From contig OZ245015.1 in the NCBI GenBank assembly GCA_965223705.1, positions 576,001-640,000 of the forward strand: DNA of 64,000 nucleotides, read 5' to 3'. The notes under the pieces were generated by a model that was not told the DNA's origin, did not search any database, and worked only from the letters and a program-made list of their open reading frames with translations. The stretch comes from Myxococcota bacterium (GTDB lineage: Bacteria > Myxococcota_A > UBA9160 > UBA6930). Position numbers and translations under genes: made by a program. Positions 5,674-26,627 of this stretch are shown here, in pieces. The stretch's first letter is position 1, and each line of letters opens with the position of its first letter.

Positions 5674-5709
5674 AACCCGAAGTGTAGTGTATTCACTACG
5701 TATTGGTCG

Positions 5710-5907
5710 CTATCGGGCGGAGGCGCATTCGGCCGCCCAACGATCCTTGAACATCTCCATGAAAAGCGCGGAGGGTCCCTCTCCAGCGATCATCGAGAAG
5801 TGTCCGCTGCCAGCGAACTCCGTCCCGCAGGACGCGCATTCGGCATCGAATTCGGAAACGGTGGCGAGGCAGGACAAGCAGAGGCGGTCTTCGTGTTGCT
5901 GGTTCAT
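5710..5907 (-). CDS. Small zinc-ribbon hypothetical protein (65 aa)
   Basis: CLSC...CASC; AAGGAG RBS before ATG 5907; preceded by ECF-type promoter motif. Confidence 0.6.
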   Translation of the reverse strand: MNQQHEDRLCLSCLATVSEFDAECASCGTEFAGSGHFSMIAGEGPSALFMEMFKDRWAAECASAR

Positions 5908-5930
5908 GTCGAACTCCTTGTTTGTGAAGG

Positions 5931-5958
5931 AGTCGATCTCGAGCTGTTTTCGGATCAC
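5931..5958 (-). promoter_or_regulatory. ECF-type promoter GTGATCC-N16-CGACT
   Basis: Minus strand GTGATCC gaaaacagctcgagat CGACT. Confidence 0.75.
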
Positions 5959-5988
5959 CCGCCCGGCCATCAAAAAAAACTGCGCAAG

Positions 5989-6016
5989 GTGATCCGGTTC
6001 GGGTGCCGCGGCGACT
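5989..6016 (+). promoter_or_regulatory. ECF-type promoter GTGATCC-N16-CGACT (divergent partner)
   Basis: GTGATCC ggttcgggtgccgcgg CGACT, A-tract upstream. Confidence 0.75.
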
Positions 6017-6287
6017 TCTCAGCAGATCGTGCGTTGGATGTACCCACCCGGAACAGCAACACACAAAGAGCAGCCGGTACGGCGCATCGCTCGATCGAAA
6101 CGGCGCCGGCCCCCTAGGGTCGGCGCCGCTCCGTCGTTCCGGAGACGGAACGGCGGGCGGAGCTCGCGGCAGGGTGTCGCGCGCTCGAGCCCACGGCGTG
6201 CATGGGGACGGCAGCCCCGCGCTACCCTTGGGTCACCCGGTGCCTGATGCGGGGACGGGTGCCACCCACAAAGCAAGGAGGGTGAGC

Positions 6288-6695
6288 ATGCCCAATTCAC
6301 GAACAACCTTTGACTGGAAGAACCGAGTCTCGGTGCGCGCGACGCGTGCGCGGCTACAAGCCGCGCTATTGGCTGCCGGCGTCGCGTGCGCGATCGGGCC
6401 ATGGCAGGAGGCCTACGCCGGCATCATCGTCGGAGAGGAGAAGACGCAGAGTCTTCCCCTGGGCGCTGTCGTACCCGATTCGAGCACGGTGGGGGTGGTA
6501 TTTCCGCCCTCGCATTATCGGTTTCCCGGCTATGCCGGGTACGGCTATGGCTACGGCTATCCGTACGGATCGTTTGGAGCTTTTGGCTACTACGGCCGGG
6601 AGTACCTCCACTTCAATCCGGACCGAGCCTTCCGCCGCCATCTTCGCGCCGACCAAGTCGGGAGCATGCGCGAACTGCGGCGCGGGAGGCGCTAG
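6288..6695 (+). CDS. Exported Gly/Tyr-rich hypothetical protein
   Basis: AGGAGG RBS, signal-peptide-like segment ending AYA, low-complexity GYAGYGYGYGYPYG tract. Confidence 0.6.
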   Translation: MPNSRTTFDWKNRVSVRATRARLQAALLAAGVACAIGPWQEAYAGIIVGEEKTQSLPLGAVVPDSSTVGVVFPPSHYRFPGYAGYGYGYGYPYGSFGAFGYYGREYLHFNPDRAFRRHLRADQVGSMRELRRGRR

Positions 6696-6765
6696 AGCTT
6701 AGAGCTCGCCGGGGCGGGGGTGAACCCGCCCCGGTTTCTCTTTTCGGGAAGTCTTGCACGGGGAT

Positions 6766-6897
6766 CGAGGTTTGGCCGTGGCCAGTGGGGGCACCGTGCT
6801 CAAACATCCTCGCGCCGATGCGGCAACGAGGTCGCCTCGCGTGCCTCGGCGGCGCTGCGGAACTGCGCGCGGTACCCCCACTGGCCACGGCCTCGCG
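6766..6897. repeat. ~130-bp structured dispersed repeat, copy 1 (REP/MITE-like or structured RNA)
   Basis: Long terminal stem GGCCGTGGCCAGTGGGGGCACCG / CGGTACCCCCACTGGCCACGGCC; second copy at 22970-23100. Confidence 0.8.
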
Positions 6898-6942
6898 ACG
6901 CCTAGCTAGACCGCCTCCCTTGACCCCGTCTGCAGAAGATTT

Positions 6943-9480
6943 CTAGCCGGCGGGTATCACCGCTGGGACGAAGAAGAAGTCGCCGGACTCGTGGCCCGCG
7001 AATCGGATGGGGGAATACTGGGGTAGCTGCTCGATGGGCGCTTCGTAGGTCACGCGCGCCGAGACTTCCTGGAAGACGCGCTGCGCTTCGAGGATCACGT
7101 CGTTGCTCTCGAGAACTTCGATCAACGCGCGAGCGAAGATCGAGTGCGCGCCGCCCCCGGCATCGAGAACCGGAGCGAGTCCGCCCGAAGTCAGCGCCGT
7201 TCGGGAGCGCTTCGCGGCCATGGTCTCGATCCACTTCACGCGCGCCTGCTCGCTCATCCCCGCTTCCAATCGGGCGAGCGATGAGCGCGTGAGCGCACCG
7301 GAGTAGCACGAGTCTGCGATCACGAGTACGTGGCGCGCGCTCATCGAATTCAACATGTCCGTCAGGGCCACGTTCGAGATCCAGTTCGCCGTGCTGTCGG
7401 CTTCGGCATCGATCGGGAGCCAATGGCCGCGCATGTTCGTCTTGTCGAGCTCGCCGTGACCCGCGTAGTAGATGAGAAGGTTGTCGTCCTCTGTCAGCTC
7501 GCGACGCAGATTGTTGAGTGCGGAAAGCGTCTGGTAGCGATCCGCGTCGTAGATCGTGGTGACCTTGAAGCCGTACTTGTCGCGCAGCAGACCCGAGACC
7601 ACCTTGGCGTCGTTGCGCGCGGTGTCGAGGGTCGGCAGCGACCGATACGCATTGTTCCCGATGACGAGCGCGTGGTAGTTGCCGAAGTTGATCGGCGGAA
7701 GCTTCGGTCGATCGGGTGCGGCGGCTACCGCCGGCGGTTCAATGGTGCGGACGCCGCTGGCCTGCACCAGGAAGTTCCGCGAGGCGCGTTTGCCGAGTTC
7801 ATCGATCGCGACGATGCGGACATCCGTGCCGTTCTCTCCCACCGGGAGCTCGCGTTCGAAGATGCCGTGCGCCGTCACTTCGATCGCCTTGTCATTGAGT
7901 GTCACGGAATACAAACCCGCGGGCGCTTCCACGCGTCCCACGACCCGTTGCACGTCGGAGGTCGCCATAAATACGGGTCGGATGCCACGCGTCATGCGAA
8001 GGGGGGGCTCGATGATCTGGATCGACGGCCCGGCGATCTCTTCGCCTTCGCCGCTCGCCGGTTTCGCCAGTTGTGCGACTTCGACCTTGCGGGCTTCCGC
8101 CTGATCCCGGAGTCGCTTGATCTCTTGGTCGAGGGCCGCGAGTTCTGCGCTCTTCGCTTCGAGCGCCGCCTCGCGCTCGGCGACGCGTTGTTCACGGGCT
8201 GTCACGGCTTCCCCGCGATCGCCCATCGCCTCCTCTGCGGCCTCGAACTCCGCTTCGAGCCGGGCGAGGTTCGCTTCGCGCTCCGCGAGCTCCCGCCGTT
8301 GCGCCTCGCGGGCCCGGTCGAGCTCAGCGCGCTGCGCGCCGAGCTCAGCGCGCTCCGACTCGAGTGTCGCGGCGGAAGCTGCCAGCGCTTCGCGTTCCGA
8401 ACCGAGCTTGTGTCGCTCCGCGGCGAGCGCTTCGCTCGCGGCGGCATTGGCCTCGCCTGTGCGCTCGCTTTCGCCGAGAGCGCGCTCTCGACGATCGAGC
8501 TCCTCGGCGCGAGCCGCAAGCCGAGCGCGCTCCTGCGACACGGCGTCGTCCCGCGCGCCGAGCTCCGCTTCGCGTCGGTCGAGTTCGCTCTGCCGCACGG
8601 ACGTGTCGTCGTTGGCTTCCCGTTCGAAAGCTTGAACCGCGGCGCGCTCCTCGGTCAGGCGGCGCTCTCGCTCTGCGATATCGCGTTGCTGCTCGGCGAG
8701 CTCGCGCTTGCGCGCTTCGAGCTCTGCGCGCTCCACGGCGAGTGCGTCTCGTTCGCGTGCCGCTGCGGCCTCATCATTCGAGAGCCGAGCGCGCGATTGC
8801 GACAGCTCCCCCTCGAGACGACTGATCTCCGAGCGCATTTCCGTGCGATCGCGCTCGCTCTCGGCGAGTTCTGCGCGAAGACTCGCGAGCTGCGTCGTCT
8901 CCCCCGGCGCCGAAACGAACGCGACGTCGGTGCCTTCGAGACCCGAGGCTCGGCGGTACCACGACACTGCGGTCTCCATGTCGGCGGGTACGCCGAGTCC
9001 GCGTTCGTAGAGCTGGCCGAGATTGACCTGCGCCGCGGCGTGGCCCTGCTCAGCAGATTTCCGGTACCAGGTCGCGGCGGCTTTGTAATCGGGTGCCGTG
9101 CCGAGCCCGCGCTCGTAGATCTCGCCGACGTAGTTCTGGGCGACGGGGTCGCCGCTCTCCGCGGACTGCTGCCAAACGCGCAGTGCCGTGCGGTAGTCCG
9201 CCCGGTCGTAACTCACGTATTCGCCGCCGCGGATCTCGCAGTCGAGGCCCGTGGTCTTCACGGGCTTTCGGGGGGCTAGGTAGGTGACCTTGCGCCCCAT
9301 CTTGCGGACCCGCGCGGGCAGGAGACAATCGACGACGAGGAGGTCGTCGGGGTCCTGCACGGCGGCCACGGGGTTCGGCGCGGCATGGGCCTGGGGTAAA
9401 CCTGCGATGAGAACAAGCAGCAGCAACGCGAGCGCGCGGCGCAGGACGGTGGCGTCCCGGCCTAGGGGTGCGGCAAGCAT
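6943..9480 (-). CDS. Exported peptidase C14 (caspase-like) with Sel1 repeats, long coiled coil and Ig-like domain
   Basis: Signal peptide (..PQAHA), Sel1 repeats (AQNYVGEIYERGLG, AQVNLGQLYERGLG), E/R/A-rich coiled coil, ALVIGNNAY, YYAGHG and ADSCYSG dyad; GGAGG RBS before ATG 9480. Confidence 0.88.
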   Translation of the reverse strand: MLAAPLGRDATVLRRALALLLLVLIAGLPQAHAAPNPVAAVQDPDDLLVVDCLLPARVRKMGRKVTYLAPRKPVKTTGLDCEIRGGEYVSYDRADYRTALRVWQQSAESGDPVAQNYVGEIYERGLGTAPDYKAAATWYRKSAEQGHAAAQVNLGQLYERGLGVPADMETAVSWYRRASGLEGTDVAFVSAPGETTQLASLRAELAESERDRTEMRSEISRLEGELSQSRARLSNDEAAAARERDALAVERAELEARKRELAEQQRDIAERERRLTEERAAVQAFEREANDDTSVRQSELDRREAELGARDDAVSQERARLAARAEELDRRERALGESERTGEANAAASEALAAERHKLGSEREALAASAATLESERAELGAQRAELDRAREAQRRELAEREANLARLEAEFEAAEEAMGDRGEAVTAREQRVAEREAALEAKSAELAALDQEIKRLRDQAEARKVEVAQLAKPASGEGEEIAGPSIQIIEPPLRMTRGIRPVFMATSDVQRVVGRVEAPAGLYSVTLNDKAIEVTAHGIFERELPVGENGTDVRIVAIDELGKRASRNFLVQASGVRTIEPPAVAAAPDRPKLPPINFGNYHALVIGNNAYRSLPTLDTARNDAKVVSGLLRDKYGFKVTTIYDADRYQTLSALNNLRRELTEDDNLLIYYAGHGELDKTNMRGHWLPIDAEADSTANWISNVALTDMLNSMSARHVLVIADSCYSGALTRSSLARLEAGMSEQARVKWIETMAAKRSRTALTSGGLAPVLDAGGGAHSIFARALIEVLESNDVILEAQRVFQEVSARVTYEAPIEQLPQYSPIRFAGHESGDFFFVPAVIPAG

Positions 9481-10303
9481 GGGGAGATCCTCCGCTCGAA
9501 AGGCAAGACTCGGGCTCTCAGCGCTGCTCGGTCTCGCAATTTGGGCCCTGGGTTGTGCCGCGCCGGCGAAGCGTTTCGACGCGACGGCCCGGGACCTCGG
9601 TTTCACACGAGAAGTCGTCCGAGGCACCCGTTTCGATCACATAGTTTACCACCGGCGCCGAAAACCCTCGGAGGGGACGCTCCACATCTACCTCGCGGGC
9701 GACGCCGATCCGAGGCGCGCGACGCGTTGGTTCCCACCGGATCCGACCCCAGGGGGGCTCCCCCTTTTCCTGATGGCCTCGGATCCCGGACCGAGTCTTC
9801 TCCTCGGACGCCCGTGCGCCCACGACGCGACGCGCTGCGACGAGGTCGCGCCCTGGACGAGCGCCCGCTACGGCGAGGCCGTCGTCGAGAGTCTCGGCGC
9901 GGCGATCGATAGCTTGGAGCCCGCGACGGGTGACCGCGGTGTCGTGTTGATCGGTTACAGCGGCGGCGGGACGCTCGCGATGCTCGTGGCGGAGCGGCTC
10001 GCCCAGGTGCGTCGCGTGGTGACGCTGGCGGGCAACCTCGACACGGCGGCCTGGGTCGGCCACCACGGCTTCCCCGGGCTGCCGGATTCACTCAACCCCG
10101 CCGAGCGGCCCCCGCTCTCGGTCCCTCAACTGCACCTCGTCGGCGAAAACGACAAGGTCGTCCCGCCCCATTTGGGGCGAACTCTTTGGGAACGTCAGCC
10201 GAACGCGGAAGTGCGCCGGCTTCCCGGCGTCGATCACACCTGCTGCTGGGAGCGCGTTTGGCCCGCCGTCGCTCGCGAGCTCCGCGAAACACCGGCCCGC
10301 TAG
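9479..10303 (+). CDS. Alpha/beta hydrolase lipoprotein
   Basis: Lipobox ALGC, GYSGGG nucleophile motif, GENDKVVP, DHTCCW. Confidence 0.8.
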   Translation: MGRSSARKARLGLSALLGLAIWALGCAAPAKRFDATARDLGFTREVVRGTRFDHIVYHRRRKPSEGTLHIYLAGDADPRRATRWFPPDPTPGGLPLFLMASDPGPSLLLGRPCAHDATRCDEVAPWTSARYGEAVVESLGAAIDSLEPATGDRGVVLIGYSGGGTLAMLVAERLAQVRRVVTLAGNLDTAAWVGHHGFPGLPDSLNPAERPPLSVPQLHLVGENDKVVPPHLGRTLWERQPNAEVRRLPGVDHTCCWERVWPAVARELRETPAR

Positions 10304-11709
10304 AACTGGTACCGCAGCCCGCCGCTCAGGGTGTAGAGGTCGACGGAGCGGAGTCCCAGCACGGTCTCGAAATCGATGAAAAAGGACAGTCCGCCCGAGA
10401 GCGCTGCGGCGATTCCCGCCGCCACGTTCGCGTAGGTCCGATCCGGCCCGTGGGCGCGGAACGTGAACCCGTTCTGGTTCGGGTCCGCGACGAAGGTCGC
10501 CCTCAAATCACGGCCGTCGTCTCCGTATTCCTGCTCCCACTCGGCCCGGATGTACGGCGTGAGCACGCCGAAGCTCGTCGACAGCGCATACCGAATCGAG
10601 AGACCCACGTCGCTCGTGAGCGAGCGCACCGTTTGATCGTCGAAGTCGAGGCGCAACGCACTGGCGATGCCGGAACCGCTTTCCGTGTAGCCGTCGATGT
10701 CGAGGTGGGTGTAGTTCACGCGAACGTAGGGTTCGATTTCCCAAGCGCCGCGGTTGATCGCGTAACCCGCGCCGACGCTGACCGCGATTTCGTCTCCGTC
10801 CGTATCGCCGGACAAGGTCCCGGTTACCGGCGCTGCGGAAGCCAGCGCGTACGCGATATCGCGGTCGAGGTCGTAATCGATGTCGGCGTAGCTGATCACG
10901 CCGTCGACGTACCAGCGCTCCATCTGATAGCTGGCGTAAGCGGAGAGGTGCAGCGCCTCCTTGTCGAGGTCACCGGCGCTGTCGTCAAAGTCGAACGTCG
11001 ATTCCGAATAACCGATCGAGATACCGGCCGCCGTCGCGTCGGAAAAGCGGTAGTCGACGCCGCCCACGATGCCGTAGGCGTCTTCGATATCGAAGCCCGC
11101 CTCTTCTTCGGTTTGATCGTAGTCGCCCCACGACCCGAGTCCTGTCACCCAGACGCCGATCCGATCGCCCAACAGGCCGCTTACCGGGTCGTCGCCGGCG
11201 GCAAACCGCTCGGCGAAAGCGACTTCGAGATCCTCGCCGCGCAGCGAGTCCCCGTCCGCGTCGCGCAACGTCAGGCCCGCGAGTTGGATGCCGCGGTGTC
11301 CGTCGCGCAACGCGATCAGTCGGCCCTTCATGAGGTCGATGTTCGTCGCGGTGGTTTCCGTCGAGGCGGCGCGCGTCGCCGACAACTCGTCGAAAGCGAC
11401 ATTCGAGTAGCCGATGTTGCGTTCGGCATCGCTCAGGCCGGTGGGATCATTTCCCAGGGTGCCGTCGCCGTCGAAATCGTTGACGACCATTTCGGTGCAC
11501 AGACCGGAGAGTCGCTCCGTTTCATTCGCCGAATTTCGATTCGGCGTCGCTCCGAGAAAAGGGCACACGGAGAAAATGAACTCCTCCCCCTTCTGGGGGA
11601 CGATGGACTGGAGCGAATCGTCGATCGGTGACTGCGCCAGCGCTTGACCGCTGCCGAAGAGCACCATCGAGAGTGCGAACGCAATGAGTAGCTTGGCCTT
11701 GACGTACAT
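10300..11709 (-). CDS. Autotransporter-type outer-membrane beta-barrel with very short passenger
   Basis: Signal peptide, GVWVTGLGSWGD, GGVDYRF, amphipathic beta-strands, C-terminal RYQF. Confidence 0.85.
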   Translation of the reverse strand: MYVKAKLLIAFALSMVLFGSGQALAQSPIDDSLQSIVPQKGEEFIFSVCPFLGATPNRNSANETERLSGLCTEMVVNDFDGDGTLGNDPTGLSDAERNIGYSNVAFDELSATRAASTETTATNIDLMKGRLIALRDGHRGIQLAGLTLRDADGDSLRGEDLEVAFAERFAAGDDPVSGLLGDRIGVWVTGLGSWGDYDQTEEEAGFDIEDAYGIVGGVDYRFSDATAAGISIGYSESTFDFDDSAGDLDKEALHLSAYASYQMERWYVDGVISYADIDYDLDRDIAYALASAAPVTGTLSGDTDGDEIAVSVGAGYAINRGAWEIEPYVRVNYTHLDIDGYTESGSGIASALRLDFDDQTVRSLTSDVGLSIRYALSTSFGVLTPYIRAEWEQEYGDDGRDLRATFVADPNQNGFTFRAHGPDRTYANVAAGIAAALSGGLSFFIDFETVLGLRSVDLYTLSGGLRYQF

Positions 11710-11757
11710 CTCCGGTGATTCCTTCCCTGAATCGAGCCGCAACGGCGGCCCAGTGTA

Positions 11758-13779
11758 CTAAGAACGGGGCATGCTGCGAAGCGGCACGCGATCGATCGCC
11801 CAGCCGGCGGGCCGAGGCGCTGCGGGCCCCGAGCCGATGTGCTCGAGAAGCGATTCGACCCAGCTCGTACTGCGTGTTCGGCGGGCTTCTCCCACGAGCA
11901 CGGTCGGGTCGTCGATCGGGTCCTCGGTCGACAGCAGCACGAGTGTGTCGGTTCCAAAGGGCGGAGCGACTTCGATCCCGGTGCGTCCCAAAGGAACAAG
12001 AGGCGGGGGAACTTCGTCCGCCGATACGGGAACCCGGTTTCCCACATTGCCGGATTCTGCGCGGGGAAAGAGCAGGGCGCGCTCGCCGTACCCGTCGACC
12101 ACGAAAACGTAGACGTAGCGCTGTTCGACGCTGGACGTTTCGACATCGTTTCGGCGCTGCAGCATCAACTCGAAACGGTCGCCTTCGAAGACCACGCCAC
12201 CCGGAATGACGCGGCCCGCCGAGGTGTCCCGCAAGACCAGGCGGTAGGGGAAGGCCGAAGCGTTTTCGGGGGATTCGAGCAGCAGCCAGTTTCGCGCGAC
12301 AGCCAAGCGTCGGGCGTTCTCCGCGAGGAGCGCCGCTGCATTCGGCGCGGTCTCGGGAATTCCGGCCCCACGGGGCGGGAGCCCCGACGCTTCGCCCGTC
12401 CGCCGCTGCCAGTGAAGCTCCGGCGCCGGCCCGGAGTGGTCTGCGGCGAGGACGTAGTGGGCCTGCGCTTCGGAAACGAGCTCGACCCCGGGAACCGATG
12501 GGATCGAGTGGGCGAGCTCTTGGCGAAGCGTCGGCGGAACCAGTGCGGGCAGCGCGACCTGGAGGGCGCCGCCGGTCGGGTGCGCCCAGCGGACCACGCG
12601 AAACAGCGTGCCGGTTCGGACCGCCTCGGGATCTCCGGCAAGAACCCGTGCCGTCGAGCGATTCAAGCCGCTCACCTGTTCGACCTGTATGCGGACGCTG
12701 GTTTCTTCGGAGACGAGCTCGCTACCGCGAAAAATGCCGGCCGCGGTGCCCGCTCGGAGAACCACCGAGTCGCCGTCCGCCGGTCCCAACGCTGCGAAGT
12801 GCCGTCCCGGGCGTGCGGTTGCGGGCGCGGCCCCGAAAAGCGCGCGTTCCCGTCGCTCGAGGGAGCCCGCCAGCACGGGTGTTTGCACGTTGTGCCCGCT
12901 GCCGAGCAGGGCGCGCGTTCGGGCGAAGAGCTTCGACACAGGCTCGTCAGCCGGGGCCTGCCCCAGGGCCTCGAACAGGGCAACGCTGAAGGCCCCGTGG
13001 TATTCGCCGCTCGCGTCGCGGGATTCTCGGGCGAGCTCACCGTCGGAGGTCGCCGCCAAGACGAGCGCACCGCGCTCCTCCGGTGCTCCTCGGGGGTCGA
13101 AGGGCGGCGTCGCGGCTCCCGCCTCGGCTTCGTAGCGGGGGGGAAGCGTCCGCACGTCTTCTACCGCGTGGAAGCTTCGAGTGGCCGAGCCGCTGTGACA
13201 GCTGTCGAGAATCACGACGAGCTCGGCGCCGCGATCGAGGACGTCGTTGAACAAGCTGCGGAGCTCTTTGTCCCGGATGTCCGCGGCGCCGCGATTCGCG
13301 TCGGCCGGCACGATCGTTTCGTCGAGGAGGTCCGCTTCGGTAGACGCCGCGTTCCGCAACTGTGAGCCGTGCCCCGCGAAGTAGAACAAGTTGACGTCGC
13401 CCGGGCCCGAAGCCTCGATCAGATGCTCGCGTATGGCGTTGAGGATGCCGTCGCGGGTGGCTTCGCCGTCGGTCAGTACACGAACGGACTCGCTCGGAAA
13501 CCCAAACCGTCCTTGTAGGATCGCCCGGAGCGCTTCGGCATCGTTCACCGCGCCGCGGAGATCGACCCAACTCGCGGAGGCTTTCGCCCGCCCGCGCGTC
13601 ACAGCGACCGCGCCGGCTTCCGGTCTGTAGCGGTCGATGCCCACCAAGAGCGCGCGTTGTGCGCCGGCGGCAGCGTCGGCGAAGCAACAGATGGCGAGGG
13701 CGGCGAGGAGCCAAAGGGTCGGCCGACGCCGCGCCTTGTGCACAACGTCGGCCGACCGATGGTGGGAGTTTCGGATCAC
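11758..13779 (-). CDS. Exported peptidase C14 (caspase-like) with C-terminal DUF4384-like domain
   Basis: Signal-like N-terminus, RALLVGIDRY, LRGAVNDA, FAGHGS and LDSCHSG dyad; C-terminal GDRFEL...YVYVFVVD..LLFP; exact start uncertain. Confidence 0.85.
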   Translation of the reverse strand: MIRNSHHRSADVVHKARRRPTLWLLAALAICCFADAAAGAQRALLVGIDRYRPEAGAVAVTRGRAKASASWVDLRGAVNDAEALRAILQGRFGFPSESVRVLTDGEATRDGILNAIREHLIEASGPGDVNLFYFAGHGSQLRNAASTEADLLDETIVPADANRGAADIRDKELRSLFNDVLDRGAELVVILDSCHSGSATRSFHAVEDVRTLPPRYEAEAGAATPPFDPRGAPEERGALVLAATSDGELARESRDASGEYHGAFSVALFEALGQAPADEPVSKLFARTRALLGSGHNVQTPVLAGSLERRERALFGAAPATARPGRHFAALGPADGDSVVLRAGTAAGIFRGSELVSEETSVRIQVEQVSGLNRSTARVLAGDPEAVRTGTLFRVVRWAHPTGGALQVALPALVPPTLRQELAHSIPSVPGVELVSEAQAHYVLAADHSGPAPELHWQRRTGEASGLPPRGAGIPETAPNAAALLAENARRLAVARNWLLLESPENASAFPYRLVLRDTSAGRVIPGGVVFEGDRFELMLQRRNDVETSSVEQRYVYVFVVDGYGERALLFPRAESGNVGNRVPVSADEVPPPLVPLGRTGIEVAPPFGTDTLVLLSTEDPIDDPTVLVGEARRTRSTSWVESLLEHIGSGPAAPRPAGWAIDRVPLRSMPRS

Positions 13780-14318
13780 TAGTTCGCCTTGCGGAACTGT
13801 ACGCGTCGGTTCTTCGATGCCGTGGGCTTCACCTCGGGCAGCGGCGTGTCTTCGCCGCGACCCACGGTGACGAGCCGAGCCGGGTCGATCTGGTGCGACT
13901 TCACCAGGTAGTTCCGGACGGACGCCGCGCGAAGCTCGGAAAGTCGCTGGTTGTAGGTCCGCTCGCCGATCGCATCGGTGTGGCCCTCGATCACGAGTTT
14001 CTCGTTCTTCGCCTGCTCGGTGCGCAGGGCCTGGCCGAGCTGATCGAGGAAGGGCTGGGATTCCGCGAGGATCTCCGCCGAATCAAAACCGAAGCGCACC
14101 TGGAACCCGATGGTCTGGGGCGGCGTGGGCGCAGGCGCGTCCTTCATCACGATCGACCGCGTCTTGTAGGCCGGCGCTGCGGCGGGGAACAGGCGGTCCG
14201 CCAGTTCCTGGGCCGACGGGGTCGAGCCCTCGATCATGTGTACCTCTTCGGCGGAGGCGGTATTCGCCGCGAGGATCAGCGCGGCACCTGTCAGCAAGAC
14301 TCGAAGCAATCCAAACAT
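13779..14318 (-). CDS. OmpA-family peptidoglycan-binding protein
   Basis: FGFDSA, IEGHTDAIG, YNQRLSELRAASV, NRRVQF; signal peptide. Confidence 0.92.
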   Translation of the reverse strand: MFGLLRVLLTGAALILAANTASAEEVHMIEGSTPSAQELADRLFPAAAPAYKTRSIVMKDAPAPTPPQTIGFQVRFGFDSAEILAESQPFLDQLGQALRTEQAKNEKLVIEGHTDAIGERTYNQRLSELRAASVRNYLVKSHQIDPARLVTVGRGEDTPLPEVKPTASKNRRVQFRKAN

Positions 14319-14348
14319 GTTCAATTCTCCTTGGGCCAGGGGCCTTGG

Positions 14349-15875
14349 TTATTGCGAGACGTCGATCCCGAGGCGGCCCACCGTGAGCCCCTTCGGATCG
14401 ATCGCTTCAAAATGTCCCAACAATTCGTTCAAGTTCGCGACGGGAAGCGGCTGTAGGTCGCCGCCCTTGAGCTCGGACGGGAGATGCAGTCCGAGCTCGC
14501 GGTCGGAAGCGACGCACGCGATCTCTTCCCGCGTGTTCGGTCGTTCGAACAAGATGGTGAACGGAGCATCGCGAGACGGAACCTCGACGAAGCGCTTGCC
14601 GCCCACGTAGGAGTTCGGCTGGAAGCGGTTCGGAAAGATCCGCGCCACGTGACCGCCCGCATCGGCGTAGTAGCAGTAGACGTACGCGCTGTCCGAAGTC
14701 TCCACGGTCATGCGGAACTCTTCGCCGACTTTGTAGGTCGGGTTCGCGCCCCGCTCGTTCAGCATCTTGAGCGTCAACGGTTCGCGCGCCGCAAGCTTCT
14801 CAGGAGTCGGCACCGAGCCAGTGTCTTCGAGGCTCGGCGGACCGGCGGCGACCTGGTAGTCCGCGCCGAGAAGCGTCCGATAGAGGTCGAAACCCACGCG
14901 ACCCGTCGGCACGAGGTTATTCTCGGTTTCGAACCGTGCGATGGCTTTGCGGGTGGCGCCGTCGAGCGTTCCGGCGCTTTCTCCCTCGAGATAGCCGCCG
15001 GCGACGAGTGCGCGCTGCACGAAGAGCAAGCGCTGCTTGTCCGACATGCTGGCGTACCAGTCGCGAATCTCCGCCAACACCTCGGGGTGCGTGGACTCGA
15101 TCTGCAAGCACTCCCAGTACGGCACGCGGGCGAGCTTGCCGAGGAGCTCGATCGCGCCGAGCTCGACCAACGTACGAACGGCTTGGTGCATGCCTTCGCT
15201 GCGGTCGATATCGATGCTGAAGGAAATGCCGACTTTTTCGATCAACCCGGCGAGATCCGCGCCCTTGCCCTTGCGGCGCACGGCCAAGCGGTTGCTCGCG
15301 GTGAGCCCGGGAACGACGCGCTTCGAGGGGTACTGAACGATGTTCATGTCGAGTGCCAACACCGAGGCGGTATTCGTTGCCGCCGCGGACGCGTCACCCG
15401 AGAGATCGTCGTTGTCGTAGGAAAGGCCGCCGCCGATCGAGTTGTCTTCGACGTTTCGATCGAGCTGCGTGATCGCGCCGCGAATATAGAAGTGCGGCAG
15501 GTTCTGATTGACCGGAAGCTCGGCCTGTTTCCCGATCGTGTCGAGATAGATGATCTGCTCCTGGTACTGCAGATCCAGATAGGAGAAGGCCTGGCTTCGC
15601 ATGGTCATCCGGGAAACGGCCGACATCAGCATGTCGTCGGTACCGGCGGCGACCTTGCCCGTCGCGTCCGGGATGCCGATCGACGTGATGCGGAAACCGC
15701 GCACGCCGTTTGCCACGAACATCTGGTCCATGCACGTCAGCGACTCGCTGAAGCTCGTCATCGACCGGACCGCCTGGGTCTTCGGTACGGACGTGATGTA
15801 GGGATCTTCGGGGATGGTCTTACAGGCGACCAGCCCGAGACAAAGCGAAAGAACGAGTAGAGCTTTAGCAGCCAT
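14349..15875 (-). CDS. Lipoprotein: CsgG/HfaB-like domain + peptidoglycan-binding domain + DUF4384-like domain
   Basis: Lipobox LVAC; IPDATGK, FYIRGAITQLD, VLALDMNIV, AVRTLVELGAIELLGK resemble CsgG/HfaB fold; FVQRAL..GYL..G.LD..TRKAI..F is PG_binding_1-like; YKVGEEF..YVYCYY..IFPN is DUF4384-like. Confidence 0.72.
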   Translation of the reverse strand: MAAKALLVLSLCLGLVACKTIPEDPYITSVPKTQAVRSMTSFSESLTCMDQMFVANGVRGFRITSIGIPDATGKVAAGTDDMLMSAVSRMTMRSQAFSYLDLQYQEQIIYLDTIGKQAELPVNQNLPHFYIRGAITQLDRNVEDNSIGGGLSYDNDDLSGDASAAATNTASVLALDMNIVQYPSKRVVPGLTASNRLAVRRKGKGADLAGLIEKVGISFSIDIDRSEGMHQAVRTLVELGAIELLGKLARVPYWECLQIESTHPEVLAEIRDWYASMSDKQRLLFVQRALVAGGYLEGESAGTLDGATRKAIARFETENNLVPTGRVGFDLYRTLLGADYQVAAGPPSLEDTGSVPTPEKLAAREPLTLKMLNERGANPTYKVGEEFRMTVETSDSAYVYCYYADAGGHVARIFPNRFQPNSYVGGKRFVEVPSRDAPFTILFERPNTREEIACVASDRELGLHLPSELKGGDLQPLPVANLNELLGHFEAIDPKGLTVGRLGIDVSQ

Positions 15876-16200
15876 CGCGGTTGAATCCTCGGTTGATGTT
15901 GATGACGTCGCCGTCGATGACAACTTCGATCTCGTCGGGCACGTCGTTCTTGCCAGGACCGGTGAAGACGCTGCCGATCGACAGGCTACCGGTGCAGTTC
16001 ACAATATCGCCTCGGTGATAGAATTTTCCGGGCTCCTGCTCCTCGGGAACGATCGTTTCGCCCGCGACGCTGGCTTTGTGCATCTTGCGGAGATGCGAAG
16101 CCTTCACGCGGGGCTTGTTGAAATCGTTCGCCAACGCGGTGTGCGCCGGCACGAAGGAGAGGCCGAGTGCGAGTAGCAACAGGGTGTTCGTGATCTTCAT
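15865..16200 (-). CDS. Small secreted protein with Cys pair (candidate accessory subunit)
   Basis: Signal peptide ending TALA, NCTGSLSIGSV...IEVVIDGDVININ..C; overlaps start of CsgG-like gene; own ECF promoter. Confidence 0.75.
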   Translation of the reverse strand: MKITNTLLLLALGLSFVPAHTALANDFNKPRVKASHLRKMHKASVAGETIVPEEQEPGKFYHRGDIVNCTGSLSIGSVFTGPGKNDVPDEIEVVIDGDVININRGFNRDGC

Positions 16201-16242
16201 GGTGTAGCTCCCTCGGTCCTTATTGTGGACCAACTGGTTGAG

Positions 16243-16270
16243 AGTCGCGCCTTCTCTTGTCCTGGATCAC
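16243..16270 (-). promoter_or_regulatory. ECF-type promoter for the CsgG-like/OmpA/caspase operon
   Basis: GTGATCC aggacaagagaaggcg CGACT. Confidence 0.75.
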
Positions 16271-16518
16271 CGAGAAGTCGGGAAATCGCTCGTATCCTCG
16301 GGAACCTGCTGGACTTCGGTGTCCGCGCGATCGCCCAAGGGGCAGAGCTCGGTCGGCGAGTCGATCGGCAAGCTCGGTACGGCTTCGAAAGACACGGTTT
16401 CGCAGTACGTGATCTCGATGGGATCGTCGACGTCCGCATCGCTGAGCGCAAACGCCGGTACGGTCGTCGTGAAGTCGAGGAAGAAGAGGGCGGTCAGCAG
16501 AAGTCGTTGTCGTTTCAT
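16267..16518 (-). CDS. Small acidic secreted hypothetical protein (83 aa)
   Basis: Signal-like N-terminus ending AFA, D/E/P-rich, two Cys; own ECF promoter. Confidence 0.55.
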   Translation of the reverse strand: MKRQRLLLTALFFLDFTTTVPAFALSDADVDDPIEITYCETVSFEAVPSLPIDSPTELCPLGDRADTEVQQVPEDTSDFPTSR

Positions 16519-16547
16519 CGGATGCCTCGGGTGCGTTGTTGATGAGG

Positions 16548-16575
16548 AGTCGACGGCGGGGGCTTCTCGGATCAC
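16548..16575 (-). promoter_or_regulatory. ECF-type promoter
   Basis: GTGATCC gagaagcccccgccgt CGACT. Confidence 0.75.
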
Positions 16576-16583
16576 CGAACGCG

Positions 16584-16630
16584 AAGAAAAACGGGGTGCG
16601 GCGCCGACTCTGCGGGGGAGTCGACGCCGC
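16584..16630 (-). terminator. Intrinsic terminator after paralog A
   Basis: GCGGCGTCGACTC/GAGTCGGCGCCGC stem followed shortly by T-tract on minus strand. Confidence 0.65.
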
Positions 16631-16669
16631 GGGGGAAGCCACGGCGTGGCTTCCAGGGCTCGTGTTTAT

Positions 16670-16996
16670 TTACTGCTGGGGTTCGCAGTCGGTCGCGGCA
16701 CCGAGCGATCCGAAGGTCGCGCACGCGTTCGACTCGTAGGATTTCGCCATGGTGTCGACGTACTTGGCGGTGCCCTCGAGGACCGGATCCCAACCGATGC
16801 GCGTGTAGTCGTGCATGGTCGCGACGCTCGTGTACGCGCTCGACTTCGTGCCCGACGCGACGGTATCGACGTTTTCACCCACCGCGAGGGTGATGAGGAG
16901 GTCGTGGACCTCGGTGGTGAAATCGCCAGCGACGCTGGCCTGGGCGAGGGAGAGAGTCGCGATCGCCGCAATCGCGACGGAGAACAAGCGGTTCAT
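16670..16996 (-). CDS. Secreted two-repeat beta-rich protein, paralog A (108 aa)
   Basis: AAGGAG RBS, signal peptide, DFTTEV...SVATMHD...ACATFGSLG...C; homologous to four neighbours. Confidence 0.85.
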   Translation of the reverse strand: MNRLFSVAIAAIATLSLAQASVAGDFTTEVHDLLITLAVGENVDTVASGTKSSAYTSVATMHDYTRIGWDPVLEGTAKYVDTMAKSYESNACATFGSLGAATDCEPQQ

Positions 16997-17046
16997 GGTG
17001 GTGCTCCTTGTGGTGTGGGTCCCGCTATTTCCGGGACTTGAAGAGG

Positions 17047-17074
17047 AGTCGCGCCAGGGCGTGTCACGGATCAC
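17047..17074 (-). promoter_or_regulatory. ECF-type promoter (paralog A)
   Basis: GTGATCC gtgacacgccctggcg CGACT. Confidence 0.78.
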
Positions 17075-17082
17075 CGATCCCG

Positions 17083-17116
17083 AAAAGAAAAAGCGCCGGC
17101 TCTTTCGAGCCGGCGC
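17083..17116 (-). terminator. Intrinsic terminator after paralog B
   Basis: GCGCCGGCTC-GAAA-GAGCCGGCGC + TTTTTCTTTT. Confidence 0.8.
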
Positions 17117-17141
17117 CAGAGGGGCAGGGGGACGTGTTGCC

Positions 17142-17465
17142 TTAGCGGGGTTCGCAGAAAGTCGGGTTGCCGACGGAACCGAAGGACGCGCAGGCGTGCG
17201 CGTTGTAGCCGCTGGCCTTGGTCTCGATGTAGCGCGCGTCGCCCTTGAGGTTCGTCTTGTAGTTGATGAGCGTGTCGTCGTGCACTGTCGCGACACTCGT
17301 CGTGGCGCTCGAGTAGTCACCCGTGGCGAGCGTGTCGACCTGGTAGCCGTAGGCGTCGGTGTCGAGCTGCGCGCGGATCTCGGTGGTGAAGGGGTTCGCG
17401 AAGCTCACGCTCGCGATGGTCAGGGCGGCAAAGCCGGCGATGGCGGAAACGAAGAGGCGGTTCAT
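17142..17465 (-). CDS. Secreted two-repeat beta-rich protein, paralog B (107 aa)
   Basis: Signal peptide, NPFTTEI...SVATVHD...ACASFGSVG..C. Confidence 0.88.
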   Translation of the reverse strand: MNRLFVSAIAGFAALTIASVSFANPFTTEIRAQLDTDAYGYQVDTLATGDYSSATTSVATVHDDTLINYKTNLKGDARYIETKASGYNAHACASFGSVGNPTFCEPR

Positions 17466-17519
17466 GATGTTCTAGCTCCTTGGTGGTGTTTGTGGGTCGC
17501 TTCCTGCGACTTGCCTAGG

Positions 17520-17547
17520 AGTCGGGCCAGGAGGGGTCTCAGATCAC
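17520..17547 (-). promoter_or_regulatory. ECF-type promoter (paralog B)
   Basis: GTGATCT gagacccctcctggcc CGACT (one mismatch). Confidence 0.72.
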
Positions 17548-17554
17548 CTGCGGC

Positions 17555-17589
17555 AAAAAAAAAGCGCCGGCTCACGAATGAGCCGGCGC
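17555..17589 (-). terminator. Intrinsic terminator after paralog C
   Basis: GCGCCGGCTC stem + T9. Confidence 0.8.
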
Positions 17590-17614
17590 CGTCGTGTCGT
17601 GTCGGCTGCGAAGG

Positions 17615-17965
17615 TTACTCCTGGACGAGCATCTTGCTGCGCTGGCCGGGCTCGCAGTGGGTCGGGTTGCCGACGGAACCGAAGGACGCGCAGGCGTGCG
17701 AGTCGTAGCCGCTGGCCCGGGTCTCGATCCAGCGAGCGTCGCCCTTGAGGTTCGTCTTGTAGTTGATGAGCGTGAAATCGTGCACGGTCGCGACGCTCGT
17801 CGTGGCGCTCGAGTGGCGGCCCGAAGCGACGGTATCGACCTGGTAGCCGTAGGCGTCGGTGTCGAGTTGGCCGCGGACCTCGGTGGTGAAGGGGTTCGCG
17901 AAGCTCACGCTCGCGATGGACAGGGCGGCAAAGCCGGCGATGGCGGAAACGAAGAGGCGGTTCAT
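17615..17965 (-). CDS. Secreted two-repeat beta-rich protein, paralog C (116 aa)
   Basis: Nearly identical to paralog B, with short C-terminal extension. Confidence 0.88.
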   Translation of the reverse strand: MNRLFVSAIAGFAALSIASVSFANPFTTEVRGQLDTDAYGYQVDTVASGRHSSATTSVATVHDFTLINYKTNLKGDARWIETRASGYDSHACASFGSVGNPTHCEPGQRSKMLVQE

Positions 17966-18020
17966 GATGTTCTAGCTCCTTGGTGGTTTTTCGCGGGTCG
18001 CTCCTTACGACCCGTGAAGA

Positions 18021-18048
18021 GGTCGTTCGAGGAGCCGCCCTGGATCAT
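18021..18048 (-). promoter_or_regulatory. ECF-type promoter (paralog C)
   Basis: ATGATCC agggcggctcctcgaa CGACC (two mismatches). Confidence 0.65.
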
Positions 18049-18055
18049 CGACAGC

Positions 18056-18090
18056 AAAAAAAAGCGCCGGCTCGAGGTGAGCCGGCGCTT
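18056..18090 (-). terminator. Intrinsic terminator after paralog D
   Basis: AAGCGCCGGCTC/GAGCCGGCGCTT stem + T-tract. Confidence 0.8.
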
Positions 18091-18113
18091 CGGAGGCGGG
18101 GAAAACCGTCGGG

Positions 18114-18440
18114 TTAGTGCTTCGGGCGGCAGTACGTCGGGGCACCGACCGAGCCGAAGGTCGCGCAGGCGTGGGCGTTGTTGCCGCTGGCCTCGGTGCG
18201 GATGTATTCCGCCTTGCCCTTCAGGTTCGTCTTGTACTGGATGAGCGTGTAGTCGTGCACGGTCGCGACGCTCGTCATCGCGCTCGAGTTGTCGCCCGTG
18301 GCGAGGGTGTCGACGTTCTTGCCGTAAGCATCGGTGTCGAGCTGAGCCCGGACCTCGGTGGTGAAGTCATTGGCGAAGCTCACGTTGGCGATGGACAGGG
18401 CGGCGAAGCCGGCGATTGCGATAGCGAAGAAGCGGTTCAT
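18114..18440 (-). CDS. Secreted two-repeat beta-rich protein, paralog D (108 aa)
   Basis: Signal peptide, NDFTTEV...SVATVHD...ACATFGSVG..C. Confidence 0.88.
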   Translation of the reverse strand: MNRFFAIAIAGFAALSIANVSFANDFTTEVRAQLDTDAYGKNVDTLATGDNSSAMTSVATVHDYTLIQYKTNLKGKAEYIRTEASGNNAHACATFGSVGAPTYCRPKH

Positions 18441-18505
18441 TGGATGGTTCCTTTGGTGGGATCGTTTTCAAACTCTCTGTCGCGCCCCTGCGCGACTTGC
18501 TGAGG

Positions 18506-18533
18506 AGTCGTTCGCCGGCCGCTTCCGGATCAC
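18506..18533 (-). promoter_or_regulatory. ECF-type promoter (paralog D)
   Basis: GTGATCC ggaagcggccggcgaa CGACT. Confidence 0.78.
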
Positions 18534-18573
18534 CCGAGCTCATTTTTTTCAGCGCGATCGCGATTTTTTCCAG

Positions 18574-18614
18574 AAAAGAAAAAGGCGCCGGCTCGAGGGG
18601 AGGAGCCGGCGCCT
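18574..18614 (-). terminator. Intrinsic terminator after paralog E
   Basis: AGGCGCCGGCTC/GAGCCGGCGCCT stem + TTTTCTTTT. Confidence 0.8.
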
Positions 18615-18639
18615 CGGGAGAGGAGGAGAGCTTTCGGGG

Positions 18640-18975
18640 TTAGTTCTTCTCCTCGCAGTGGGTCGCGGGGCCGATCGACGCGACGCTCGTGCAGGCGCGC
18701 GATCCACTGTGGCTGGCCTCGGTCCAGACGTCGCGTACGGAGACGTCGATCTTGACCGGACCCTCGATCTTCGTGTCGTCGTGGATCGACGCGACGCTCG
18801 AGTAGGCGACGGCGTTGGCGGCCGTGGCCTTCGTCGTAACGTCCCGGACTTCCACGGTAATTTCGACCCGATCCTTGATCACGGTCGAGAAGTCACCGGC
18901 GAAGCTCGCGGTGGCGAACGACATCGACACGATGCTTAGGGTGATAGCGGCGATGAGGGCGAAGGCGCGGAGCAT
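18640..18975 (-). CDS. Secreted two-repeat beta-rich protein, divergent paralog E (111 aa)
   Basis: AGGAG RBS, signal peptide, clear 37-aa internal repeat (VRDV.T.A....A.SSVASI / VRDV.T.A....ACTSVASI), Cys pair. Confidence 0.85.
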   Translation of the reverse strand: MLRAFALIAAITLSIVSMSFATASFAGDFSTVIKDRVEITVEVRDVTTKATAANAVAYSSVASIHDDTKIEGPVKIDVSVRDVWTEASHSGSRACTSVASIGPATHCEEKN

Positions 18976-19031
18976 GGCTTTTCTCCTGGCTTGTTGATGT
19001 CGCTGGCCGCGCATCTCGCGGCTCGTTCCGA

Positions 19032-19059
19032 AGTCGCGGGCACTTCCCGTTTGGATCAC
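19032..19059 (-). promoter_or_regulatory. ECF-type promoter (paralog E)
   Basis: GTGATCC aaacgggaagtgcccg CGACT. Confidence 0.78.
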
Positions 19060-19144
19060 CGCGAAGGAAAAAACGATTTATCCCCACGGGGCAGTGCGGT
19101 ACAGTACGATCGAGTCCTCGGTTAGAGAGGGTCGGCGACAAGCG

Positions 19145-20017
19145 ATGGATCGAGAACAGTGGAAGACAGTTCTCAACGCGGCGAGCGACGGCGACGCGCC
19201 CGCCTTGCTTCAGCTGACCCGCCAGGTCAGCCGGCTCCTCGAGGAGTACGGCGCCTACACCGTCCGTAAGGAGTGGGCCGAGGACGTCCAGAAGATCACG
19301 GCAGCGGTTCTCGAGGGATGGGCCGAGGGTGGAACCCTCGCCGCGGACACCCATATCGAAAGCGTCACCAAGAACCGTTTTTGGGGTCAGATTCTCGATC
19401 TGATGACCCAGAACGATATGAAGGCGGGCCAGCTCTTCTTTCCGACCGTTCGCCGTCTACTCGGCAAGTGGGACGGGGCCCGGCGCGCCGAGGCGCAATG
19501 GGACGACATCGTTCAGGAGACCGCGCACCAGCTCTGGGAGAGCTGGATGAAGGGTGGGGTGAAACGCCCCTGGTCGCTGCTGTGCACCATCGCGAAACGC
19601 CGTTATCTCGACAAAATCCGCGCCGAGCGCCACACGGAAGAAATCGAGGATGAAGCTTCTGAGGAGCTGGGTGACAGCCCCGGCGAGCTCTTCACCGAAC
19701 AAGCCCTGGCCGTCCTCGAAGAAGAGGAGCGGCAGGTCATTGTCCAAATGGACATCGAGGGCAGGACGCGCGTCGAAATCGCGGATTCTCTCGGCGTGAC
19801 CGAAGGCCAGGTGCTTTCGACGCGCCGGGCGGGGTTGCGCCGCATCTGGAGATGGCTCGGCCGCGACCTTCCACCGACCTCGCGCGCCGTCTGGGAGGAG
19901 ATGTTCAAAGGCGCGCGGCGAATTCCCCCGGAGGAAGTGGCCGCCAAGCTCAGTATGGAGACCGCCGAGGTCGTCGAGATCCTCGAAGAGGCGCGCGTCC
20001 TCACGGGGCTCGCATGA
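19145..20017 (+). CDS. ECF-type sigma-70 factor with N- and C-terminal extensions
   Basis: Region 2 (WDDIVQET...LCTIAKRRYLDKIR), region 4 (LEEEERQVI..EGRTRVEIADSLGVTEGQV); adjacent anti-sigma. Confidence 0.82.
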   Translation: MDREQWKTVLNAASDGDAPALLQLTRQVSRLLEEYGAYTVRKEWAEDVQKITAAVLEGWAEGGTLAADTHIESVTKNRFWGQILDLMTQNDMKAGQLFFPTVRRLLGKWDGARRAEAQWDDIVQETAHQLWESWMKGGVKRPWSLLCTIAKRRYLDKIRAERHTEEIEDEASEELGDSPGELFTEQALAVLEEEERQVIVQMDIEGRTRVEIADSLGVTEGQVLSTRRAGLRRIWRWLGRDLPPTSRAVWEEMFKGARRIPPEEVAAKLSMETAEVVEILEEARVLTGLA

Positions 20018-20037
20018 GGGAAAAAACTCGCTGTGAA

Positions 20038-20065
20038 GTGATCCGGAACGTCCACTGGCGCGACT
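20038..20065 (+). promoter_or_regulatory. ECF-type promoter for anti-sigma gene
   Basis: GTGATCC ggaacgtccactggcg CGACT, A-tract upstream. Confidence 0.75.
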
Positions 20066-20129
20066 TGGGTCCAGGGGAAGGTGGGTCATCGAACCCGCCG
20101 ACAGGAGCCTCGACGAAAAGGATCGTCCC

Positions 20130-20912
20130 ATGACCAGCAAGGCCCACGAGCCTGACTTCGAAGACCGACTCGAGCGGTCCACCGGTGCCCGCCTGCGCGG
20201 CGAAGACCCGCGCGAGCTGACCTGGCACCCCTCGGACAGCGAGTTGCTCGCGTTCCACGCAGAGCCTCGCGGGATGGAGGCCTCATTGCGGTCCCGCATC
20301 CGCGATCACTTCGGGAGCTGCGGATCGTGCCGCGATGCGTTCGCGGCGTTCTCGGTACTGGCCGCCGCGCCTGCGCCCGAGGTGGCGCGCGCAGCGGCCG
20401 CCGATTCTCCTTCTCTGCTCGAGCGCTTGTTCGAGCCGTTCCGCGCGATGTTCGCGCAGCCCGCCTTGGTCTCGGCCATGGTCGCGGTCTTCGCCGTCGC
20501 GGGTTTTCTCGCGATCGACCCGATCGATCCGGGCCCCGGTGAGGGCACCCGGGGCGTGTATCCCATCGAACGCACGCCCTCGGTCGATCCCGGCACGCTC
20601 GGTTCGGCGACCGTCACCCTGGCGAGCGGCTTTCCGACGCGAGTCGAAGCCGATGCGTTGTCGGGTTCTCGGGAAGTCGTCCTCGAGCTCCTCGCGCCTT
20701 CGACGCTTCCGGCGGGGCCCGAGTTCACGGTCCGCTTGATGGGGCCCGAGGGGGCCCGCGAAGCGGTCGCCCAGCTCGGCGAAGAAGCTCCGCCGCGGAT
20801 CGCCGCGATTTTTCCGGCCGAGGCTCTGACGCCCGGCGCGTATCGGGTGACGGTCTTTCTACCCTCCGACGCGACGTCCGCGCTCGCGACCTACGAACTC
20901 GAGATCGAGTGA
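20130..20912 (+). CDS. Zinc-binding (zf-HC2/ZAS) transmembrane anti-sigma factor
   Basis: HPSDSELLAF, HFGSCGSC (HxxxCxxC), one TM, periplasmic Ig-like tail (LTPGAYRVTV...YELEIE). Confidence 0.82.
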   Translation: MTSKAHEPDFEDRLERSTGARLRGEDPRELTWHPSDSELLAFHAEPRGMEASLRSRIRDHFGSCGSCRDAFAAFSVLAAAPAPEVARAAAADSPSLLERLFEPFRAMFAQPALVSAMVAVFAVAGFLAIDPIDPGPGEGTRGVYPIERTPSVDPGTLGSATVTLASGFPTRVEADALSGSREVVLELLAPSTLPAGPEFTVRLMGPEGAREAVAQLGEEAPPRIAAIFPAEALTPGAYRVTVFLPSDATSALATYELEIE

Positions 20913-21130
20913 TGCACCGTCTTCTCGTCGCCGCGGCGTTTCTCGCGCTGGCGTGCGTCGACGGCGGACGAAGCCCCGAAGCGAGTCTCGACGGTGCGCT
21001 GCACGTGACGTGTCGCGGGGCTGGCACAGCCGTGACGGTGATTGGATCGCGCGCCGCAGACGCAGGGCGCGTCGTCGCCCGGGACGTTCGGACCGACGCC
21101 GGACGCGGCAGCCGCTGCGAAGAGTCCTAG
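20909..21130 (+). CDS. Possible small lipoprotein
   Basis: Lipobox-like LALAC, start coupled to anti-sigma stop. Confidence 0.4.
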   Translation: MMHRLLVAAAFLALACVDGGRSPEASLDGALHVTCRGAGTAVTVIGSRAADAGRVVARDVRTDAGRGSRCEES

Positions 21131-22950: not shown

Positions 22951-22969
22951 GGACACGTTTGCGGAAGAC

Positions 22970-23100
22970 CGAGGCCGGGCCGGGGCAGGTGGGGGCACCG
23001 TGCGGGGACATCCTCGCGCCGACCGGGTGACGAGATCCTTCGCGCGCTTCGGCGGCGCTGCGGAACTGCGCGCGGTACCCCCACCTACCCCGGCCTCGCG
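22970..23100. repeat. ~130-bp structured dispersed repeat, copy 2
   Basis: Shares GTGGGGGCACCGTGC, ACATCCTCGCGCCGA and TCGGCGGCGCTGCGGAACTGCGCGCGGTACCCCCAC with copy 1. Confidence 0.8.
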
Positions 23101-23108
23101 GCACCCAG

Positions 23109-26625: not shown

Positions 26626-26627
26626 TC

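Follow-up and report, generated by a model that had tools for sequence, protein, structure and literature searches.

Two export systems of the CsgG family have been studied so far, and many CsgG paralogues are without an assigned cargo, according to the excerpted text of PMC3521004. The systems closest to the one considered here are curli of E. coli (CsgG, CsgE, CsgF, CsgA and CsgB), the holdfast anchor of Caulobacter (HfaA, HfaB and HfaD) and the Fap system of Pseudomonas (FapB/FapC, FapD and FapF). We have analysed a locus at positions 5710-21130 of the window, by which we mean the whole stretch of 64,000 nucleotides taken from contig OZ245015.1 (positions 576,001 to 640,000) of a Myxococcota bacterium, whose genome comprises 4.5 Mb in two contigs. 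An earlier note on this DNA had proposed that the locus encodes a secreted-fibre system with a CsgG-like channel. The cluster is real and conserved, and it is apparently undescribed, literature searches having found no description of it. We favour, with moderate confidence, export through a wall-tethered CsgG-type ring of small repeat proteins that stack into a surface fibre or matrix, which would likely be of a new kind. Every step from secretion onward is our inference; what the analysis shows is fold, domains, repeat period, a promoter-like motif and co-occurrence. It thereby identifies a family of candidate cargo proteins together with a partner that is conserved, and in one lineage it adds a sigma factor and the exact motif of its presumed promoters.

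The CsgG-fold lipoprotein and its partners

Read downward on the minus strand from 18975, the locus presents five subunit genes (S1-S5), an open reading frame of 83 residues, a secreted protein of 111 residues, a lipoprotein of 508 residues, an OmpA-C protein, a C14 protease and an autotransporter barrel. Beyond the barrel come a plus-strand alpha/beta hydrolase and then, again on the minus strand, a Sel1/coiled-coil/C14 protease, while a gene for an extracytoplasmic function (ECF) sigma factor and a putative anti-sigma gene diverge from the subunits (19145-20912). Open reading frame listing, gene calling and family scans confirmed that all the parts listed in the earlier note are present in the window; the hydrolase, which lies inside the span (about 9467-10303, +), had been left off that list. 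Independent DNA contigs confirm the gene order, covering 6852-17190 in one piece together with 17958-21400, and within 6852-21400 they break only at near-identical paralogues.

The lipoprotein (14349..15875, minus strand; lipobox LVAC) is distantly related to the pore through which curli are secreted. The earlier note had staked its proposal on a CsgG-fold match for this protein, and the fold was found. A pore domain at about residues 38-259, which contains two long amphipathic beta-hairpins, is followed by a PG_binding_1 domain (301-350) and an Ig-like DUF4384 domain (365-508), both of which match above their cut-offs. The protein shares with the CsgG structural superfamily the CsgG fold, a lipoprotein signal and two long beta-hairpins. 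Its nearest named relatives are Myxococcota records. The NCBI annotation calls it a “DUF4384 domain-containing protein” and the subunits hypothetical, although some JGI labels already name the pore CsgG. What is new here is the link between the sigma factor and the motif, a missing constriction loop, a small partner of the pore and the division of the locus into two modules.

Several features distinguish this pore from that of curli. Where CsgG has a constriction loop of 17 residues, bearing Y51, N55 and F56, the lipoprotein has a loop of 5 residues, and unlike CsgG it is fused to PG_binding_1 and DUF4384. The locus also differs from curli in having OmpA-C, caspases and control by an ECF factor in place of CsgD. 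The Pfam CsgG model (PF03783) did not match the lipoprotein in the family scan and had no matches in its own genome (the control matched 4/14). The missing loop and the failure of PF03783 would suit an alternative that makes the lipoprotein a scaffold ring between wall and membrane, resembling PelC or FlgT. The repeat proteins would then be soluble monomers, either periplasmic or secreted (surface-binding beta-helices, for instance), that never pass through this ring. The fold is indeed common to PelC, FlgT and LptE. We judge this alternative very improbable. A natural CsgG-like pore lacking the constriction loop would interest those who work on nanopores and fibre materials.

In the favoured reading the subunits would be carried over the inner membrane by Sec, and the lipoprotein would form an outer-membrane ring that passes them to the surface. 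The ring may be anchored to the cell wall both by its own peptidoglycan-binding domain and by the secreted OmpA-C protein (13779..14318, minus strand), which carries an OmpA C-terminal peptidoglycan-binding domain.

The same double tether figures in a second alternative, in which the exported repeat proteins remain at the pore, where a short oligomer capped by disulfides, or a coat, would tether a polysaccharide or adhesin, as HfaA and HfaD do on HfaB in Caulobacter. The likeness to the holdfast anchor includes a CsgG-like lipoprotein with small, non-curlin secreted partners, and HfaB is the sole NCBIfam model that matches the pore domain (E 3.4e-11). This match, however, reaches 42.8 bits where the cut-off is 300, and the extra domains of the pore set it apart from HfaB. 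No HfaA or HfaD model matched a window gene, and neither is included in the 25 families listed, out of 42, for a set of 88 repeat proteins. The C-terminal Cys pairs and low Asn/Gln content of the subunits would be in keeping with such an anchor, as would a glycosyltransferase-like membrane gene just outside the locus (4423-5673). That gene, PMT_2-like (E 4e-4), stands with what we take, from its sequence, to be a UDP-GlcNAc 2-epimerase-like gene in window 3293-5673; neither is conserved next to the pore in other loci, and polysaccharide export genes do not recur around the pore in the loci surveyed. Five separately driven subunit genes also suggest bulk output rather than a short coat, and we consider the anchor unlikely.

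The co-occurrence of these genes in other genomes, on which the earlier note had likewise made its proposal depend, is extensive: pore, repeat proteins, a small upstream protein, OmpA-C and caspases are widely found together. In the genome collection 395 stretches encode a pore relative, and the best 80 were fetched and subjected to our own gene calls and clustering, with one locus (L052) added by hand to each neighbourhood count. The surveyed loci are rich in kin, so that the counts are not independent. A repeat protein was present in 48 of the best 80 loci, one of two small secreted families (c9 or c6) in 57, OmpA-C in 61, a caspase in 52 and the barrel in 4 (5 by direct BLAST). The 51 loci that span 19 kb or more give 32, 40, 47, 44 and 3, respectively. 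Window-type subunits, strictly defined, occur in 30/80 loci with the full profile, and in 26/79 plus L052 when the signal peptide is omitted. When the flank of the pore held no subunit, one was found elsewhere in 9 of 10 genomes tested, and all 7 pore genomes of the class have repeat proteins with signal-like starts.

The window's member of the c9 family (15865..16200, minus strand), just upstream of the pore gene, is a small secreted protein of 111 residues with two invariant or nearly invariant Cys residues and relatives at E 5e-11. Of 26 loci with c9, 22 have it immediately upstream of the pore gene, and in the remainder it is within two genes. It stands beside the pore in 7/7 pore genomes of the class (one of them, L001, assigned as G112:C388 by position), and in a sample of 301 genomes of the phylum it was found in 4, all of them pore genomes. 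No locus has both c9 and c6, and in a quick tree c6 is limited to one branch. As in curli, a small conserved partner gene is thus found beside the pore. The small genes of this locus, unlike those of curli, show no CsgE or CsgF, being without any Pfam match, and a comparison of c9 with CsgF gave a probability of 0.1. We regard c9 as a candidate pore adaptor or nucleator; it might cap the pore and initiate the polymer, as CsgF and CsgB do. The earlier note had counted two further small secreted proteins besides the subunits. c9 bears this out, but for the other, an open reading frame of 83 residues with a signal-like start (16267..16518, minus strand), no relatives were found in the genome or in the fetched loci and its status is uncertain.

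Azospirillum, Skermanella, Roseicella and Caenispirillum, harmless genera of soil and plants that are in culture, carry the system, which is therefore open to experiment now. In Azospirillum lipoferum 4B, genes of the FHA, PP2C, trypsin-like and kinase types lie behind a subunit, c9, the pore and OmpA-C. These four genes, on plasmid p4 (L110, 9829-16262), also adjoin an integrase, and with the Ser/Thr kinase-FHA-PP2C set after them they are possibly a mobile copy with a different regulator. In many alphaproteobacterial pore loci a CHASE2 cyclase and Crp are found in place of the ECF factor. Loci of Azospirillum, Rhodopila, Roseicella and their kin (L013-L080) contain the CHASE2 cyclase, Crp, two DUF4399 genes, caspase-FGE-sulfatase fusions and the small secreted families c6, c7 and c10; the cyclase and Crp suggest cyclic-nucleotide control.

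Repeat subunits

The proposed cargo consists of five tandem paralogues of 107-116 residues on the minus strand: S1 (18640..18975, 111 residues), S2 (18114..18440, 108), S3 (17615..17965, 116), S4 (17142..17465, 107) and S5 (16670..16996, 108), with true starts at 18975, 18440, 17965, 17465 and 16996. All five begin with a sequence resembling a signal peptide and carry a pair of Cys residues at the C-terminus, and S1, S2, S3 and S5 are 34-87% identical to S4, S1 being the most divergent of the five and the one with the strongest 37-residue repeat. An internal period of 37 residues was found in four of the five, the best period in the fifth being 46. In single window subunits the repeat is weak, its level being reached by 0-3 of 100 shuffles, but across the family it is clear. 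A significant period (reached by at most 1 of 100 shuffles), mostly of 34-37 residues, was found in 94 of the 100 distinct repeat proteins taken from pore loci. A profile search with the subunits recovered 56 representatives at E<=0.001, and no consistent Pfam or NCBIfam family emerged among these relatives.

A structure predicted for S4 (pLDDT 76.9) is all-beta, and its strands pair as 28-30/65-67, 34-48/71-85 and 51-58/88-95. Because these strands are offset by 37 residues, the subunits are predicted to fold as two-rung beta-solenoids, which would stack at the surface to give a fibre or matrix. The cargo of curli likewise consists of small repeat proteins of the Sec type, with a variable number of repeats and a predicted beta-solenoid fold. 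The repeat of about 37 residues nevertheless differs from that of curli, about 22, and there is no match in the window to curlin (PF07012; X6QXGX2NX10). The repeat length is close to the 38-39 residues of Fap given in the excerpt of PMC12392863.

The earlier note had called the subunits unrelated in sequence to CsgA or FapC. For detectable similarity this stands, although some repeat proteins beside related pores carry motifs of one or the other. The minimal curlin motif QxGxxN, as defined in the excerpt of PMC3521004, is found in 0/5 window subunits and in 5/100 of the wider set of repeat proteins. A FapC-like turn (N-psi-aa-G-x-GN, after the excerpt of PMC12392863) is found in 16/100 related repeat proteins and in none from the window; the full FapC motif is found in 0/100. 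Against the window-type profile, repeats with a FapC-like turn or a curlin motif do no better than shuffled sequences, so that common descent of the three types is a lead only. In a fold comparison no curlin entry was returned for the subunit, and the two-rung model gives weak scores. Beside a related pore in another genome (L095; G191), two Asn/Gln-rich secreted proteins (876-1505 and 4647-5822) contain 6 and 13 QxGxxN repeats with a period of 31 residues; they too have no Pfam curlin match.

These observations may be drawn together in a broader proposal, which we hold as possible rather than probable. The locus would represent a widespread third branch of CsgG-type secretion, producing a new functional amyloid or beta-solenoid fibre of 37-residue repeats through a wall-tethered pore that lacks the constriction of curli; a dedicated cap protein would start the process, and periplasmic caspases would police it. 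The repeats would form a series that runs from a curlin-like type (QxGxxN) by way of a Fap-like one (NVAAGxGN) to the type seen in the window, poor in Asn and Gln, and so link the two known amyloid systems. Weighing against an amyloid are the composition of the window subunits, which contain 2-8% Asn plus Gln and no QxGxxN, and their terminal Cys pair.

An ECF sigma factor and a repeated promoter-like motif

The subunits and their neighbours share a promoter-like motif, GTGATC-N17-CGACTY. Ten strict sites fall within 5500-21300, as against 0.04 expected from the remaining chromosome (11 other sites), and there is one relaxed site in addition. With spacers of 13-16 or 18-21 the two halves do not occur together in the locus. 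On the minus strand the motif precedes S1 (19031..19059), S2 (18505..18533), S3 (18020..18048, relaxed), S4 (17519..17547), S5 (17046..17074), the 83-residue open reading frame (16547..16575), a likely operon of c9, pore, OmpA, caspase and barrel (16242..16270) and the Sel1-caspase (9612..9640). On the plus strand it precedes the anti-sigma gene (20038..20066), and two copies stand back to back at 5930-5958 (-) and 5989-6017 (+). The latter accompany two small genes, each behind a motif copy: one at 6288..6695 (+), of 135 residues, for which no relatives were found, and one at 5710..5910 (-), encoding a Cys-rich protein with two CxxC motifs. The earlier claim that one motif ties the locus together is upheld by these sites, except that the ECF gene itself has no upstream copy. 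Terminator-like hairpins follow S1-S4 (18582-18615, 18061-18091, 17563-17590 and 17092-17117, minus strand). The region contains 17 hairpins, compared with 11.6 +/- 3.4 in shuffles, and only placement and stem length favour these four.

The sigma factor (19145..20017, plus strand; about 290 residues) is followed by a putative membrane anti-sigma factor (20130..20912, plus strand), so named from its position, a His/Cys motif and one hydrophobic stretch. Comparison across the class bears on the link between factor and motif that the earlier note had drawn. An orthologue of the ECF factor is present in 5/191 class genomes, and these are the same 5 that hold the subunits. A close motif pattern recurs in all four of the other ECF genomes (12 sites; a reversed control gave no match), and it was not found in one pore genome lacking this factor. 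In 1.33 Mb of proteobacterial pore loci there were 0 strict sites. This co-occurrence supports the link, with the ECF factor as the presumed reader of GTGATC-N17-CGACTY. Freed from the anti-sigma factor, it would turn on about eleven such promoters, and a separate promoter for each subunit gene, with a terminator after S1-S4, would fit high-dose output of a structural protein.

The -35 element is that of ECF11 (RpoE/ChrR) promoters, which the excerpt of PMC7826278 gives as GTGATC with CGTA at -10. The -10 element here is CGACTY in contrast, and the anti-sigma factor is a putative membrane protein rather than a soluble cupin of the ChrR kind; the family scan found no cupin match in 20130-20912.

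The CxxC-CxxC protein has relatives in two orthologous loci (L091 11215-11406 and L092 11549-11743). It lies behind the motif both in the window and in a second genome (G014), a relative is found in the locus of a third (G055), and it is possibly a regulon member. Other good copies of the motif occur in the genome at G000:C1 936561, 986151, 1755681 and 2273718. One of these precedes a gene of 59 residues, a relative of which in G014 is likewise behind a motif copy.

Caspases and a separable module

Both exported proteases belong to the C14 family (PF00656) and retain intact His and Cys motifs. One (11758..13743, minus strand) has a weak C-terminal match to DUF4384, and the other (6943..9480, minus strand) has Sel1 repeats and a coiled coil. 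An exported cysteine protease nearby is a point of likeness to Fap, although FapD is a peptidase of family C39. In the favoured reading periplasmic caspases might trim the subunits, remove blockages or cleave the anti-sigma factor. Caspases are frequent but not obligatory, none being annotated in the locus stretch of A. lipoferum 4B.

The last of these roles is central to a further alternative, an envelope signalling or defence device. Here the repeat proteins would be secreted signals or decoys, and the pore with its DUF4384 domain would relay their state to the caspases, which would close a feedback loop by cutting the anti-sigma factor or, in other lineages, act through the CHASE2 cyclase and Crp. 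We think such a device decidedly unlikely. The locus also places exported bacterial caspases and DUF4384 in a context.

The earlier note had further supposed that the locus merges the logic of curli with that of Fap, the barrel standing for FapF. The comparison does not support this. The barrel (10300..11709, minus strand) is an autotransporter domain (PF03797, 223 bits) behind an N-terminal part of about 170 residues, and it lies beside the pore in only 4-5/80 loci. These features do not fit a FapF-type barrel as the exporter; the predicted exit is the CsgG-type ring. The barrel and the Sel1-caspase occur within about 3 kb of each other in 20/191 class genomes, 16 of which have no pore. Five such pore-less regions (G146:C2, G071:C21, G058:C7, G123:C4 and G155:C1; L124-L128) were fetched, and they contained no subunit, c9, pore or motif. 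The hydrolase (9467..10303, plus strand; start uncertain), which travels with these two genes, sits between them in 2/5 of the regions, and in one of the five the barrel gene was uncalled. Window 6943-11709 therefore constitutes a module of its own; in the lineage of the window, barrel, hydrolase and Sel1-caspase stand under the same motif as the core. As a stand-alone unit in 16 pore-less genomes, barrel, optional hydrolase and Sel1-caspase are worth a study of their own.

Some features of the window lie outside these two modules. A palindromic intergenic repeat of ~145 bp occurs at 6760-6905 and about 22967-23112, with about a dozen genomic copies at 77-85% identity, and the independent contigs break at it. 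A secreted protein at 27162-27902 ends in VPEP, a hydrophobic stretch and a basic tail, which we take to be a PEP-CTERM-like motif, and two small lipoprotein-like paralogues stand in tandem at 26329-26951.

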